A stretch of 64,000 bases of DNA from Podospora anserina (GCA_017654855.1 CM030336.1:3534001-3598000); one strand, 5' to 3'; shown: positions 1,857 through 31,002, numbered from the stretch's first letter. Translations and numbers: made by a program. The notes: generated by a model from the letters alone, not told the origin.

Positions 1857-2520
1857 ATGAGCATGCGTAAGTACACATTACCTTGCTAAACATCTTCCAA
1901 CAACTAGTACTCACCTCTCTTTTTGATGATCACAGCAAAACTTCACTGGCCTACCATCACCGACCGCCTCGCTAAACTCCCCTCAACAATCCCGCCTCAC
2001 GAGCGATACGTCCATGTAACCAACAATATCGCAAGCGTGGTCCGATGGAATAAGGATCTTCTTGAAGGGATGCTCCTCGAGGCGCAGGCCCATTGTTGCG
2101 CTGCTGAGTTTGCGGCAAAAGATTGGTCCGAGAGTACCGATGCCAATGATAGCAAATCTGCTGAGAGGACAAGTTCCAAGGAAAGGGAAGAGAATGAGGA
2201 AAAGTGCAGGTTTTATGAGATTTTGATCGAGGTTTTGGAGGGTAACGTCAATCTTTTCTGCGTCTCAGGAAGTTTTCTAATGATTTGCATAGGAAAAATC
2301 AAGAAGTTGAAGACTCCGATTGATGAGGAGAGTTGGGAGGATGATTACGGTAGGAATATGGTGTTTTTCTTCTTGGGCTATCAAGTCGGAAGGAGGTTCG
2401 CTGACTGTAGTGATGTCTACAGAGATGGTTGACGAAAATAGAGACTCGGATGACCAGTGGGTGCATATTACCTTAGGCAGCCGTGCAAGCGGTCTGGCCA
2501 GCGCTCAAAATAGACTGTAG
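1857..2520 (+). CDS. Small-protein array member 1 (intact; introns 1867-1935, 2242-2292, 2350-2410)
   Basis: Spliced MSMPKLHWPTITDRL...MLLEAQAHC...KCRFYEILIEVLE...WEDDY|VMSTEMVDENRDSDDQWVHITLG...; GT-AG introns with branch sites; AIM-like DSDDQWVHI. Confidence 0.7.
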
Positions 2521-3054
2521 CATTCTCGTTATCGAGTGGAATTATGTGTGCGCAGAAGAACGTTTAAGTCAAGCTTTTTTTTTCAGACAGGCTCGCCGCA
2601 CTATGCACTTTGTCAATCCGCACTAGTGTGGGGCTACTTGAAATGTCGAGGAAGACATACATCTACAACCACTATCTTTATAGCCATACTACCCATGATA
2701 TTTAATTATTGAAAAATAAATACCTACATGAAATTGCCCATAAAAAACCTATTTCTTGGGAAAAATAAATTGTTTTCGCCCTTGCACGATGTGTTTGAAG
2801 ATGGTTCAACGTGAGGCCTGTTGATACATGCAGCGCTAGAATAGGAGTTTAGATGGGAGGGTTAGGGGTATATCTGGGGAAAAGCGGCTCACATAGTATG
2901 GACTGACAAAGTGCATAGTACGGCGAATGTGTCTCTTCTTTTTTCTTGAATAGCTCAATGAACCTGTTTTTACAAAGCCTCAGCGGTTGAGTGAGTCTTC
3001 AACCTTACTCGTTGTTTTGGGCGGAGAGGGGGAAAAAAGATAGCAAAAGTAAAT

Positions 3055-3166
3055 TGACAACTGTGAGATTCGAACTCACGCCTCTTTCGAGAGTAGAATA
3101 CCATTCATTTCTGAGTGGAAGATGTTATCTTGAGTCTACCGCCTTAGACCGCTCGGCCAAGTTGCC
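3055..3166 (-). tRNA. tRNA-Leu(CAA) with intron
   Basis: Reverse complement GGCAACTTGGCCGAGCGGTCTAAGGCGGTAGACT-CAA-G[intron about 30 nt]TCTACTCTCGAAAGAGGCGTGAGTTCGAATCTCACAGTTGTCA; D arm, long variable arm, TTCGAA T loop, paired acceptor stem. Confidence 0.93.
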
Positions 3167-3521
3167 TGTGTGATTCATGTTTTTCTGCATCGGAAATAGA
3201 CATCACAGCACAGACCTCCCAGACCATCAAAGGTTGATCACGACAACACCAAAGGGGGAGCGCCACGCTTGTGTTGTCAGGCAGTACAAAACTTTGAAGT
3301 CATCTGTGTGGATCTTGACGCCGCCATGGATGCAAGTTGCTCCAGGTGGCGCCACCATGTCCATGGTGTACGAGAGCAAGATCTTGCTCTTCAAGTGAAT
3401 AATACCTGTTTCCCATTTTGGACTTCCACCTTCTTACTTTCAAACACCAATACAGCCCGCCCTGTTTCAGAGAACCTCACAACAATATCATCACAAACCA
3501 ACCTCACCATGCACCGGCACA

Positions 3522-4078
3522 ATGTCCACCAGCAAAATCTTCCCCTGGTCCTCCATCAAGCCGAAACTCCTCACCTCCGAGGGTCGTTTCATCTACGACG
3601 ACAGCATCTACGCCGACGTCGCCTGTGACATCCTCACCGAAGCCGCCAAACGCAACCCCCTCCAAGAAATGCTCGATGACTCCTTGCGGGCTCTCAAAGA
3701 CGCCAGAAAGCTCAGGGAGAGTGGTGGGGGTGGTAACGATGCTAAGTTGCAGTTTGCCTTCTTTTTCATCTTGACTGGTATGGTGACTGTCCAGCTTAGA
3801 GCGCAGGAAAGAGAGGTCATTTCTGAGAAGATGAAGGGGAGCAAGAGCCCTGGGTGTGAGAGCACGGATAGTGGGTTGAGTGATGGTAGTGGGCAGAGTG
3901 GTAATTTTGGTACGTGGGATGTGGTTTGAAATTGGGAGTGGAAAGACTGACGATGCTGGCATACTTAGTCAAGATCGATCTGGATGAGATCCGGGATGTT
4001 ATGGCGCGAGAGGGGGTCAAGAGAAAAGGCGTTTTGAACAAGGTTTCCGAGTGGTTTTTTGGGAAGGGGAAGAAATGA
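3522..4078 (+). CDS. Small-protein array member 2 (intact; intron 3910-3968)
   Basis: MSTSKIFPWSSIKPKL...LQEMLDDSLRAL...KLQFAFFFILTGM...SGNF|VKIDLDEIRDV...VSEWFFGKGKK*; lacks intron 1 and a clear AIM. Confidence 0.65.
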
Positions 4079-28157: not shown

Positions 28158-28729
28158 ATGCCTTCCAGCGCTTTCAACTGGGGTGCCATCGGTGCGTCTC
28201 TTCAACAAACAACCTTTACAAATCCAGCTAACACACCCTGTGTAGAGGAGGCTATCGAGATGAATGAGGTTGTCCCCGGCAAAGGTAGCAAGATGGTGTT
28301 CATGCCCGTCGCTCGCGACGTCATCCAGGACATGCAGAGCAACGAAAGAATCACCATGGCCGCTTTGCGTCAAGACTGCCAGGAAGTCCTCAAACAAGTC
28401 AACAGGCAGTACCAGTCAGCAGCCCGCTCCGTCGCCGACAGTGTCACCCTCAGTGTGAAGGAGACTGCCTTCAACAAGCTGATCATCAAGAGACATTTCT
28501 TTGCCTTTATGCTGGGTTGGATCGAGATGTCGAGGGTGAAGCAAGGTATATCTGAGATTTCTGGTGTGTAGAAAACCTCTGATTGTGGAATAAAAGAAAC
28601 TTGGCAGCTAATCACATGTATACAGAGTCACTGTCGTCCAACTGGATTCTTGTGCCCATTGAATCCAATTGGGACGTGGATGCTGATGATGCAGACTGGG
28701 TCATGGTTGGGAAGGCCGATTTGGTTTAG
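28158..28729 (+). CDS. Small-protein array member 9 (intact; introns 28192-28245, 28564-28625)
   Basis: MPSSAFNWGAI|EEAI...AALRQDCQEVL...IIKRHFFAFMLGWIEM...SEIS|ESLSSNWILVPIESNWDVDADDADWVMVGKADLV*. Confidence 0.78.
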
Positions 28730-29210
28730 GAGGGATGAAGTCGAGGGCAGACACATAAGAGAAAGGGACGAGACATGGAGAACCAAGCACCATTGCCCTA
28801 TCGATAGATCCATATCACATCAAAGGATAAAAAGACGATGAAAAGAGGAAATCTTCCTCCCAGGTGACAAAGCCAAAACATGAACAATCCCGTCGGTGTC
28901 CACGACCCCAATGTCGGCATTGCAGAGCTTAAAGCGGGCTGTTGGGCCCGCTTCCTGGTTCCGTTCACTGACTCTGTGGCGCGAAAGAAATCTCGATGCT
29001 CCGATGAGTGCTTTGCCGTCGGTCTTGTGGGCCTGTGATGGTTCTCAACGCTCATGAGCACATGTATAAATTCCGCCCCAACTTCGCCCTCACCCATTTG
29101 TTTTTCGTTTTCCCACACATTTCACAACCGGCTTCAGTCACTCTATACCATTAGGTACCTACCTAACATATCACCTGCCCCACCCCCCGTTCCCACAGTC
29201 AGTCATTACC

Positions 29211-29845
29211 ATGAATCCTCCAAACATTTTCAACTGGGACCGAATCGGTAAGCACCCTCCAAACCTACCTACCTAGGTACCTCTTCCGACATATTAACCA
29301 TACCCAGGGCGGGCCCTCAAAAAAGGTCGTGGGCCAGAGAAGATGCCGCTGCAGTCCACCTTTGACGAGATTGCCACCGCCTATTTCAAGGAGGTAATCT
29401 GGAAGGACAAGAAGGTCTCCCTTCACGATCAGCTCCGTGACTGCCGCGAGATGTTGGAGCACAGTGAGTATGCCTGGGCCGATATCCCCACTGAGGATGA
29501 CCATACCTCCGAGACTGCTAAGACTGAGAACATCATGCTGGTTGAGGTGGCTGTCCGCCGCACATTCTTCAGACTTTGCCAGAGCTGAATTAAGGAGAGG
29601 ATGGAGACGGCTGGGGTTTCGGAGGGGACTGAGAATCCTGGCGTGTTGGAGGGGACTGAGAGCCATCCAGGTAAGCGATGCTGAGCGGTCATGAGAGCTT
29701 TCCAGTGGGAGTGTTCTGATGCTGACAAAGATGTCAAATAGGTACAGAGGTTATTCCCACCAACGACAATGCCTGCACGTCCGCGGAGGATCATGGCTTT
29801 GACACCGGCTGTGATGATTGGGTTCTTGTTGAGGGAGCCTCGTGA
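29211..29845 (+). pseudogene. Small-protein array member 10 (introns 29248-29307, 29671-29741; single TGA at the conserved Trp, 29586-29588)
   Basis: MNPPNIFNWDRI|GRALKKGRGP...SLHDQLRDCREML...AVRRTFFRLCQS*IKERM...|GTEVIP...DTGCDDWVLVEGAS*. Confidence 0.7.
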
Positions 29846-30352
29846 TAGGGTTGGATTGGCAGCACAGTGTCCGATGTGGCGCGAAGGGTTCTGGATGGAT
29901 TGCTCATCAAGGGTAGACATGTTGATTGCATTGATGGGGACCAAAGAAGAGCAGGAATCCGGAATAAAAGCTCAACTCTGCTTTATAATACTCGCTTTAC
30001 CTGGATCTGGAGAGCTCTGCGACAGGTTTCGAGGAATAGAATACCAAGTTGCTCCCAGTGACATCAGGGTCCACAATCGTCACATGAGAGGCGCTCGTGG
30101 CGCTCCCAAGTTCACTACCAGACCACATTATATTCACTGCCTTTGACACAAAACTCAAACGCAGGTGAATATCCCATCAGATACCTATTGCTCCCATCAA
30201 GTCCCACCCCATCCTGCCTCATGTATCAAATACATTCCTTATCGCGCCTCAAAAGCTTTCTCTCATGCGCACCCTAATCCATCACCTCACCACCACAAAC
30301 CTTTTTAACCAACCATCTATTCAAGTCAACGTAGCCTCTCCAGTGCTTCACA

Positions 30353-31002
30353 ATGTCCAAGAACGTCTTTGACTGGGAGCCAATCTGTAAGCCCGCCTTG
30401 AATCTCCTCACAAAGACCTGCTAACAAATATAAACAGGCGCCACCCTCATGGAGGGACGCGGTCCCGCAGACCTCCCCCCTCCGGCACTCTTCATGTCAA
30501 CCGCCAGGGCCCTCATTGTCAATCTTCATCAGGAAAAGAAGATTCCGATTCGCAGACTCATTCGTGACTGCAAGGAGATGAGAGACAATAGCGGATATGC
30601 ACTGGGCGATGTTTCTTCTAGCAAGAAGAAAGCTGACAATGCACCTACTTTTTTAGGGACGTCTTCAAAATACAATTCGGGAACTTGCCGGTGAAGGTCA
30701 TCATCCGTCGCCAGTTCTTTCAGCTTACTTTGACCTGGCTGGAGGGCATGCTGCAGAAGGCTTGTGAGACTGCTGTTGCTGGGGTGGATGATTATGGTAA
30801 GTTGATAACACTGAACTGAGGGCTTGACCTTATCTTATCTTATGACCGCTATCAAATCGAAGTTTTATCAGCTAACAGATTCTGTTCAATGGCAGATGGT
30901 GTCCCAAGCGACCAGGATATTCTCAACTCGGAGCCTGACTGGGAGGAAGTCACTGGGTTGGAGGATTGGGTCTGGGTTGAAAAAACAGATATCGAGGCTT
31001 GA
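30353..31002 (+). pseudogene. Small-protein array member 11 (introns 30387-30437, 30797-30895; frameshift near the T-run about 30649-30654)
   Basis: MSKNVFDWEPI|CATLMEGRGP...RRLIRDCKEM.../...VIIRRQFFQLTLTWLEGM...GVDDY|DGVP...SEPDWEEVTGLEDWVWVEKTDIEA*. Confidence 0.68.

Follow-up and report, generated by a model that had tools for sequence, protein, structure and literature searches.

A tandemly arrayed, Podosporaceae-specific protein family with acidic tryptophan tails at the pnt1/hellp locus of Podospora anserina, and candidate partners of the tail motif

What do the acidic, tryptophan-containing tails encoded by a run of small genes in Podospora anserina bind, and might they connect a cell death locus to autophagy? 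We examined this question in a 64,000-nucleotide stretch of genomic DNA (GCA_017654855.1 CM030336.1:3534001-3598000; hereafter the window, with positions counted from its first nucleotide), in which a tandem array of about 14 units on the + strand (m1 to m11, with m3b and m4b) is found on either side of the pnt1/hellp gene pair. Filamentous fungi have, to our knowledge, few described selective-autophagy receptors. A preliminary description of the array proposed that most members end in a W-x-x-[VI] motif binding the autophagy protein Atg8, and that together they form a diversified receptor repertoire. The explanation we favour, tentatively and as one that taken whole falls a little short of an even chance, is an Atg8-binding tail on a Podosporaceae-specific helical family.

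Presence and conservation of the tail motif

All 11 motif strings quoted in the preliminary description are present on the + strand at the positions it gave, and ten of them lie 4–24 codons ahead of the next stop (DEDKEWVDI lies 85 codons ahead). A loose form of the motif (two or more D/E in the four positions preceding W, with +3 occupied by V/I/L) occurs at 21 sites in the six frames of the window. On the + strand between 2440 and 31002 there are 13 such sites, compared with about 2.3 if the rate found elsewhere applied (binomial P = 1.1e-4), and 10 of the 13 are family tails, including a newly found one at 9721. The core [W/F/Y]-x-x-[L/I/V] is present in all motif-bearing tails of the window, and at least two D/E precede the W within four residues in 10 window tails and in 9 of 14 homologues.

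The cores of the units are only 11–25% identical in pairs. Nonetheless, m3b, m4, m5, m7, m8, m9 and m10 were linked by phmmer and an iterated hidden Markov model (HMM) at E-values of 5e-8 to 9e-3 (1309 six-frame pieces). An exhaustive HMMER search of 1.84 billion representatives with an 8-row profile of window cores identified 17 proteins at E ≤ 1e-3, and 16 of them were retrieved (the exception, P0019, has 1396 residues, an E-value of 8.8e-4 and six matching stretches). Six of the 16 are orthologues or fragments of window units (73–99% identity, tblastn). All 10 relatives that were looked up are hypothetical proteins of Podosporaceae, namely five from Triangularia verruculosa (on a single 128-kb contig), two from Apiosordaria backusii and three from Cercophora samala, and because their accession numbers are consecutive or nearly so, the tandem arrangement is conserved. 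A full-length HMM built from database homologues was run against 2323 pieces; its 19 matches at E < 1 all fall on the + strand in the interval 3399–30999 and include stand-alone N-terminal mini-exons and tail exons. We describe the array as a birth-and-death family of small proteins, duplicated in tandem and specific to Podosporaceae.

In these relatives the motif is retained, as the preliminary description would expect. Nine of 14 homologues have its strict form within their last 45 residues, compared with 0.76 expected from within-tail shuffles (P about 1e-9), where the homologues are kin and not independent events (representatives less than 50% identical to each other) and the background is the shuffled tails and not a proteome-wide rate in acidic tails; the fragments P0014 and P0018, and also P0019, were left out of the comparison. 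The five misses comprise near-motifs in P0010 (SGDWVWV) and P0015 (ERDWAVV and EADWDVM) and three truncated or unspliced annotations. The tail Trp is the sole invariant column in a 12-row alignment that spans four genera and includes the m7 tail. Since the motif is kept across four genera in proteins less than 50% identical to each other, the remainder being at 15–35% identity, it must have been under selection in the past, and the tail motif is very probably a selected short linear motif.

The tail was described previously as lying usually in a separate last exon, and this is supported for m7 and m8 by their annotated orthologues P0004 and P0003 (tblastn); for m1 and m9 the support comes from open models with GT..AG splicing. 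The accompanying statement that the rest of the tail is not conserved did not hold. The tails align as a module, [DE]-[VI]-[IL]-P-[ST]-x-x-D-[IV]-x-x-x-[DE]-x-D-W-x-[VI]-[VI]-[TS]-x-D-D, and the family HMM detects tail exons alone (28583–28726, E 7e-5; 9664–9774, E 1.7e-4; 30820–30999, E 1.6e-3). Each tail carries between one and six motifs of the type [DE]-[DE]-W/F-x-[VI]-[VI]. For example, acidic aromatic-x-x-[VIL] motifs number four within the final 70 residues of P0015, three in P0017 and three or four in P0009. Multivalency and an acidic pair at X6-X7 (positions counted from the Trp as X0) add to the features described earlier.

The earlier count of 9 motif-bearing members out of 12 stands at the DNA level, although as proteins only m1, m7 and m8 are readable. 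These three are the only open models in the window that carry the motif, and their splice sites are canonical. The array could be an eroding relic without present function here, its motifs persisting by descent alone, a view that fits the seven motif-bearing units that are broken or orphaned and the transposon remnants lying within the array. We consider this very unlikely: the models of m1, m7 and m8 are still open, with canonical splice sites, a spliced transcript is seen for m11, and retention of the motif across four genera amid such divergence requires past selection.

Candidate partners of the tail motif

Among possible partners Atg8 fits the tail best, and we infer that the chance that the motif binds it is about even, or slightly below. 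In a proteome-wide screen for LC3B binding, W was over-represented at X0, Glu at X1, and acidic residues both at X-1 to X-3 and at X7; the X7 residue contacts LC3B R70 in the tight binders ANK2 (...EEEWVIVSDEEIEE...), FYCO1 (...DAVFDIITDEEL...) and ANK3. The family consensus DWx[VI][VI][TS]xDD matches these determinants point for point. In the proposed mechanism, the tail motif would act as a canonical W-type Atg8-interacting motif (AIM), seated as a beta-strand in both hydrophobic pockets of Atg8 (PaATG8/IDI-7). The docked tail would tether the helical bundle, plus any ligand of the bundle, to autophagic membranes, and the tethered protein could be a receptor, an adaptor or a competitor for Atg8. 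The earlier proposal is supported at the level of the motif (invariant W, predicted disorder and the determinants of LC3-interacting regions, LIRs), but its receptor repertoire and its viral, transposon or amyloid cargo are hypothetical, and the proteins have no homology to known receptors. Delivery of cargo to the vacuole by these proteins, a role suggested by analogy with such receptors, is possible but unlikely.

The interaction was modelled with ESMFold2, without alignments, by docking the last 45 residues of m7 to residues 1–116 of P0022, a filamentous-ascomycete Atg8 representing an 861-member cluster at 90% identity. P0022 was reached from a degenerate Atg8-motif pattern through metagenome loci and one intact ascomycete open reading frame used as query. 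The docking score was 0.47 (runs of 0.47, 0.46 and 0.53), compared with 0.00–0.01 for three controls, which the tool grades as 'weak support'; the runs share at least 40% of contacts, and the partner has a predicted local distance difference test (pLDDT) score of at least 43. Of 78 solved complexes, 51 attain this mark, as do 2 of 108 mismatched pairs. Scores of 0.60 or below account for only 5 of the 78 solved complexes, but for all four passing mismatches (of 180). The modelled docking suggests a likeness to known LIR-Atg8 complexes, and little more.

Several points weigh against Atg8 binding, or against a receptor role. The paper on the LC3B screen itself cautions that peptides with similar features may not bind; LIR-like strings are common, and the false-positive rate of LIR prediction is high. 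By the docking tool's own account, most weak passes are false when the tested idea was not already probable. The method is uncalibrated for peptides and disordered chains, a pass may reflect memory of solved LIR-Atg8 complexes, and P0022 is a stand-in, not the host protein. Neither Pfam nor the fold searches revealed any resemblance to Atg19, Atg34 or NBR1, or a recognised domain for binding cargo or Atg11. Because the family is confined to one fungal family, it is not part of the core autophagy machinery. Within the window, seven motif-bearing units are disrupted or orphan remnants (m3, m4, m4b, m5, m6, m9 and m10). Two members, m2 and m11, are whole but lack the motif, which is therefore inessential to the family, and m11 is the sole member with transcript evidence. 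Finally, a second Trp motif at the N-terminus, as conserved as the tail Trp and overlooked in the preliminary description, has no explanation in the AIM model.

A selected motif could also serve a partner other than Atg8, such as SUMO, a trafficking adaptor, a tetratricopeptide repeat (TPR) domain (e.g., that of PNT1) or a lineage-specific protein. The array adjoins, on both sides, a NOD-like receptor (NLR) with NB-ARC and TPR domains, and the Atg8 docking pass is weak. Moreover, V/I at +2 and +3, the acidic flanks and the repeats in some tails resemble SUMO-interaction motifs (SIMs) as we understand their consensus, including those of poly-SIM proteins. That consensus asks for V/I/L at three out of four successive positions next to an acidic flank, and Trp is not a known SIM feature. 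WVIV, WVMV and WVLV meet this consensus only if W is counted as hydrophobic, and WEEV, WVHI, WVDI and WEMV are without the three aliphatic positions that a SIM needs. We retain the SUMO reading as a rival only, since the invariant residue is Trp, which is also the preferred LIR X0 residue and as such speaks against non-Atg8 partners in general. Taken together, these make a non-Atg8 partner unlikely, if still worth serious thought.

The remaining alternative is that both Trp motifs are structural, and it bears on the anatomy of the proteins. Whole members have three exons (an N-terminal mini-exon, the core and the acidic tail). Mini-exons lie at 8398–8434, 24385–24417, 26615–26648, 28158–28191, 29211–29247, 30353–30386 and 31529–31562. 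In m7 to m10 exon 1 has about 34–37 coding bases and ends right after F-[DN]-W-x-x-I, and the intron that follows is in phase 1 where the phase was determined (m4, m8, m10 and m11). The N-terminal consensus, N-x-F-[DN]-W-x-x-I-[RK]-x-x-L, forms an amphipathic helix and itself satisfies W-x-x-I; its Trp is invariant in all 14 aligned homologues, as are one Ala and one Phe. The core (exon 2) has about 100 residues, a variable surface and recognisable helices (L..L.DC...L and R..FF..L..W.E). An AlphaFold2 model of P0007 (14-row alignment; mean pLDDT 73) places helices at residues 8–17, 26–43, 48–73, 84–109 and 117–126, with core helices at a pLDDT of about 90 and tail residues 126–150 below 50. 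The core is accordingly modelled as a helical bundle of three long helices plus the N-terminal helix, and the tail with its Trp motif is probably disordered. A Foldseek search against the PDB found no match at E ≤ 0.001, and the best Z in a wide VIA-align structural scan, 8.6, lies inside the noise stated for helical models; because such matches are at the noise level, the fold is uninformative. No signal peptide or membrane segment was evident by eye in family members.

Under the structural alternative, the tail strand, perhaps along with the N-terminal helix, would fold back onto the bundle or associate with its counterpart in another copy, giving auto-inhibition or homo- or hetero-oligomerisation among paralogues. 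The most conserved residues do lie at both termini, and the P0007 model draws, beside the N-terminal helix (8–17), the two tail motifs as a beta-hairpin (133–138 and 141–145). However, the tail has a pLDDT below 50 and its placement on the core carries no confidence, and the variable tail length, the variable number of motifs (1 to 6) and the 150-residue insert of m7 suit a flexible linear motif better. We therefore rate a structural role as distinctly unlikely and return to the Atg8-binding tail as the preferred reading; within the window, m1, m7 and m8 alone could still work as Atg8-binding proteins.

Units of the array and their genomic setting

The window DNA is eukaryotic, with short GT..AG introns. 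The array opens with m1 (1926–2520, +), an open 172-residue model with exons at 1926–2349 and 2423–2520 separated by a 73-nucleotide GT..AG intron; it has a variant N-terminus (KLHWPTITDRL) and the tail motif DSDDQWVHI at 2443–2469. By hhalign m1 reaches the family at E 0.11 only, and it is placed there provisionally by its x-W-x-x-I N-terminal motif, R-x-F-[FY] helix and position, not by sequence statistics. The next unit, m2 (3522–4078, +; N-terminus KIFPWSSIK, end SEWFFGKGKK), is a whole gene lacking an acidic Trp tail and joins the family through hhalign (E 1.1e-5). Two orthologues with 94% identity, P0001 and P0002, whose names refer to Podospora pseudocomata and P. bellae-mahoneyi, are annotated with an intron at about 3910–3967, and an in-frame 'TWDVV*' in m2 is consequently intronic. 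A paralogue of m2 (FFPWPQLRKYFLNSEG), m3 (4720–5444, +), is probably disrupted. Its core is interrupted by an in-frame stop after 4983, the reading frame changes, and DEDKEWVDI lies at 5163–5189; phmmer links it with m2 at E 0.3–0.5 only, and it nearly matches the Pfam family DUF3425 (19 bits versus a cut-off of 27.1). Absent from the earlier list of motifs is the core remnant m3b (6577–6831, +; family HMM E 0.007), which has an orthologue in P0014.

In m4 (8398–8941, +), exon 1 ends in FDWEAI and introns lie at 8435–8487 and 8771–8825; the tail is VIPSSKDAIRNLDDDWNVV, with the motif at 8861–8884, and there is a frame shift at a T run near 8525–8535. It is followed by m4b (9664–9774, +; family HMM E 1.7e-4), an orphan tail exon remnant (DVIPCADDIRKLEENWVVIDADE) whose motif, RKLEENWVVID at 9721, also was not listed earlier. 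On the other side of pnt1/hellp, m5 (24358–24919, +) has the N-terminus NAFDWSMIR, an intact core and a tail exon with EIEMQWEMV at 24848–24874, but a frame shift ahead of the donor site puts the tail exon out of frame with the core. Its 99% identical orthologue P0006 is annotated to the identical end, ...GRFW. The pseudogene m6 (25146–25620, +) has at least three in-frame stops and the tail motif VEEDWEVI at 25540–25563, and joins the family through tblastn with P0015 (E 2.5e-7).

Two of the three open models come next. The first, m7 (26615–27566, +), encodes 274 residues in exons 26615–26648, 26714–27025 and 27088–27566, with a VYIWKDI N-terminus, the core, a K/E-rich insert of about 150 residues and the tail motif DDDEDWVIV at 27522–27548, 5 residues from the end; its orthologue P0004 also has 274 residues, and the model agrees with that annotation. 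A K/E-rich insert of 100–150 residues (27090–27440 in m7), coiled-coil-like by eye, is shared with the Cercophora relative P0011 and is missing from other members. The second, m8 (28158–28729, +), encodes 151 residues in exons 28158–28191, 28246–28563 and 28626–28729, in agreement with its annotated orthologue P0003; its N-terminus is AFNWGAI, and two tail motifs lie at 28634–28654 (SSNWILV) and 28685–28708 (DDADWVMV). In m9 (29211–29845, +; exons 29211–29247, 29308–29670 and 29748–29845; orthologue P0005), the tail reads EVIPTND...CDDWVLV, with the motif at 29810–29830, and a single premature TGA at 29586–29588 stands where P0005 has Trp. The first exon of m10 (30353–31002, +) encodes MSKNVFDWEPI and is followed by an intron at 30387–30437. 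Its tail motifs are EPDWEEV (30931–30951) and LEDWVWV (30958–30978), and it is frame-shifted at a T6 run near 30650. The frame shifts of m4 and m10, both at T runs, could be assembly errors.

The last unit, m11 (31463–32072, +), is a whole member lacking the Trp tail. Its exon 1 ends in FNWDEIR, and its phase-1 intron (31563–31614) has a position identical to those in m4 and m8–m10. With exon 2 alone matching the family at E 0.066 (hhalign), m11 is provisionally placed by its motif, R-x-F-[FY] helix, intron position and location instead of sequence statistics. The splice 31562–31615 is joined in one RNA contig, which reads through the stop. This contig begins at 30858, within the last exon of the frame-shifted m10 (region 30858–32200), and m11 may therefore have a long 5' leader or be co-transcribed with m10. 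Four RNA-like contig sets leave 24293–30700 uncovered and are uninformative on the expression of m5–m10; likewise, no RNA run was listed for 24200–31100.

Beyond the window, the Triangularia verruculosa protein P0012 (241 residues), annotated as a single protein, aligns as an m3b-like unit followed by an m5-like unit that has its own SAFKWSTIK motif at residue 102; it reflects either gene fusion or the merging of two gene models. None of 11 member pieces matched a Pfam family, and the ESM Atlas held no usable match for the m8 core or P0007. A word-index protein search with the m8 core also found nothing, a sensitivity miss given that the exhaustive HMMER search later found P0003. Repeat-induced point mutation (RIP) was considered as the source of paralogue divergence and rejected, as TpA/ApT is 0.40–0.70 in array genes versus 0.91–0.99 in transposon segments. 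We found no paper naming Pa_5_8030, 8040, 8050, 8080, 8090 or 8100, which the supplementary tables of PMC3689799 may list, and a literature search for Podospora, Atg8 and selective autophagy receptors, judged by titles and abstract openings, yielded nothing on the family.

The gene pair that divides the array comprises a minus-strand reading frame at 17696–20800, encoding an NLR with NB-ARC and TPR_10 domains (Pfam), and a gene at 21531–22390 whose product is HeLo-like at the N-terminus (PigL_N/SesA) and bears a Ses_B-type motif at the C-terminus (Pfam). In four RNA-like contig sets, 47 bases of the latter gene are spliced out between 21958 and 22006. The intron of Pa_5_8070 is given as 47 bp in PMC7885112. 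Because domains and intron match, we identify the two as pnt1 (Pa_5_8060) and hellp (Pa_5_8070), which constitute the third amyloid NLR signalosome described in P. anserina (PMC7885112). The TPR part of PNT1 is a long series of near-identical TPR_10 units, 13 stretches of which were matched by Pfam. Its frame here spans 1034 codons stop to stop, compared with 971 residues published for the S strain; PMC7885112 describes TPR number in PNT1 as strain-dependent.

Inside the array are a DDE_1 transposase broken over several frames and a retroelement integrase (Integrase_H2C2 and rve), at 11131–12788 and 16023–16721 (+), and 9800–17600 has a RIP-like dinucleotide bias (TpA/ApT 0.99). A repeated element occupies 22800–23535. 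RNA-like contigs from four runs match it at 90–95% identity only and have loose ends passing into other sequence, and the local RIP index is raised (0.91). Immediately upstream of the array, 787–1290 (+) encodes a calmodulin-like protein with four EF-hands. Outside the window, Pa_5_8000 lies near the array region to judge by its locus number; according to Table 3 of PMC3689799, no other gene for a signal transduction ATPase with numerous domains (STAND) is induced as strongly in het-R/het-V incompatibility as this NACHT gene (93.5-fold).

A functional link between the array and hellp/pnt1 is tempting, with neighbourhood as its sole basis. The accessible text of PMC3689799 reports that autophagy is strongly induced during Podospora incompatibility, that loss of autophagy accelerates death and that idi-7 is PaATG8; the same text describes no link between autophagy and NLR- or het-driven death. 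If the array were coupled to the PNT1/HELLP death switch, as a set of diversifying Atg8-tethered receptors or Atg8-mimicking baits, it might route HELLP/[pi] amyloid, activated NLR signalosomes or non-self proteins into the autophagic pathway, and would offer a molecular basis for protective autophagy in Podospora incompatibility death. We regard this coupling as a long shot. The three open models (m1, m7 and m8), together with the Triangularia, Cercophora and Apiosordaria members, nonetheless provide a concrete candidate set at a characterised amyloid-NLR locus. If their tails bind Atg8, they would be, as far as is known and within a limited literature search, the first tandemly arrayed, rapidly diversifying fungal Atg8 binders; if they do not, the family is still a new one, marked by its two invariant Trp motifs.

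Comparison with known systems

The yeast cytoplasm-to-vacuole targeting (Cvt) receptors Atg19 and Atg34 carry their AIM, W-x-x-[LI], in an acidic tail at the extreme C-terminus after a helical region, and the family resembles them in having a helical region followed by an acidic tail with a motif of this type. Unlike Atg19 and Atg34, to which they show no sequence or fold match, the family proteins are much smaller, restricted to Podosporaceae and arranged in tandem. The Atg11-binding stretch of Atg19 comprises residues 388–395 in the C-terminal region with the motif D/S-I-L-S-S-S. Tail-exon starts such as EVIPSS, EIIPST, EVISS and DVIPTA loosely recall this stretch, here with Pro. An Atg11-binding-like regular expression matched 4 of 20 tails, three of the matches in the tail module (DVIPTA, EIIPST and EVISS), and a [DE][VI][IL]P tail start was also seen by eye in m4, m4b, m9 and P0008; this is a resemblance only.

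The tails are also similar to the extended LIRs of FYCO1, ANK2 and ANK3, sharing an acidic run, an aromatic residue, x, [VI], [VI], [ST], x, two acidic residues and [LIV]. Strings for comparing the family with the extended-LIR examples are DWAVVTTDDLEE, DWCVVTADDLEE, EWDVITGDDV and DDDWNVVTVEE. FYCO1 and the ankyrins, unlike the family, are large metazoan proteins, unrelated beyond the motif, so the likeness is one of motif and the binding here a candidate one.

A further parallel is PexRD54, an RXLR effector of Phytophthora infestans whose last residues, DWEIV, are reported as necessary and sufficient for binding ATG8CL (dissociation constant 220 nM) and which competes with a host receptor. 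Like PexRD54, the family combines a helical bundle with an AIM-type motif near the C-terminal end, and this precedent makes an Atg8 competitor possible instead of a receptor. PexRD54 differs in being a secreted oomycete pathogen effector with WY domains, whereas the family is endogenous and, by eye, has no signal peptide.

Finally, the array shares its genomic place, around pnt1/hellp, with the NLR-paired amyloid effectors (HET-S/NWD2, HELLF/FNT1 and HELLP/PNT1). Pfam found no match to PP, sigma or HET-s type motifs in any array member, while HELLP matches Ses_B and PigL_N, and the conserved termini of the family are Trp motifs, unlike the N/Q/G-rich amyloid motifs of these effectors. The family itself is new, and acidic W-type Atg8-interacting tails on helical proteins are an already known kind; a tandem, diversifying, lineage-restricted set of such tails beside an NLR death locus would, if binding is confirmed, be a new arrangement.

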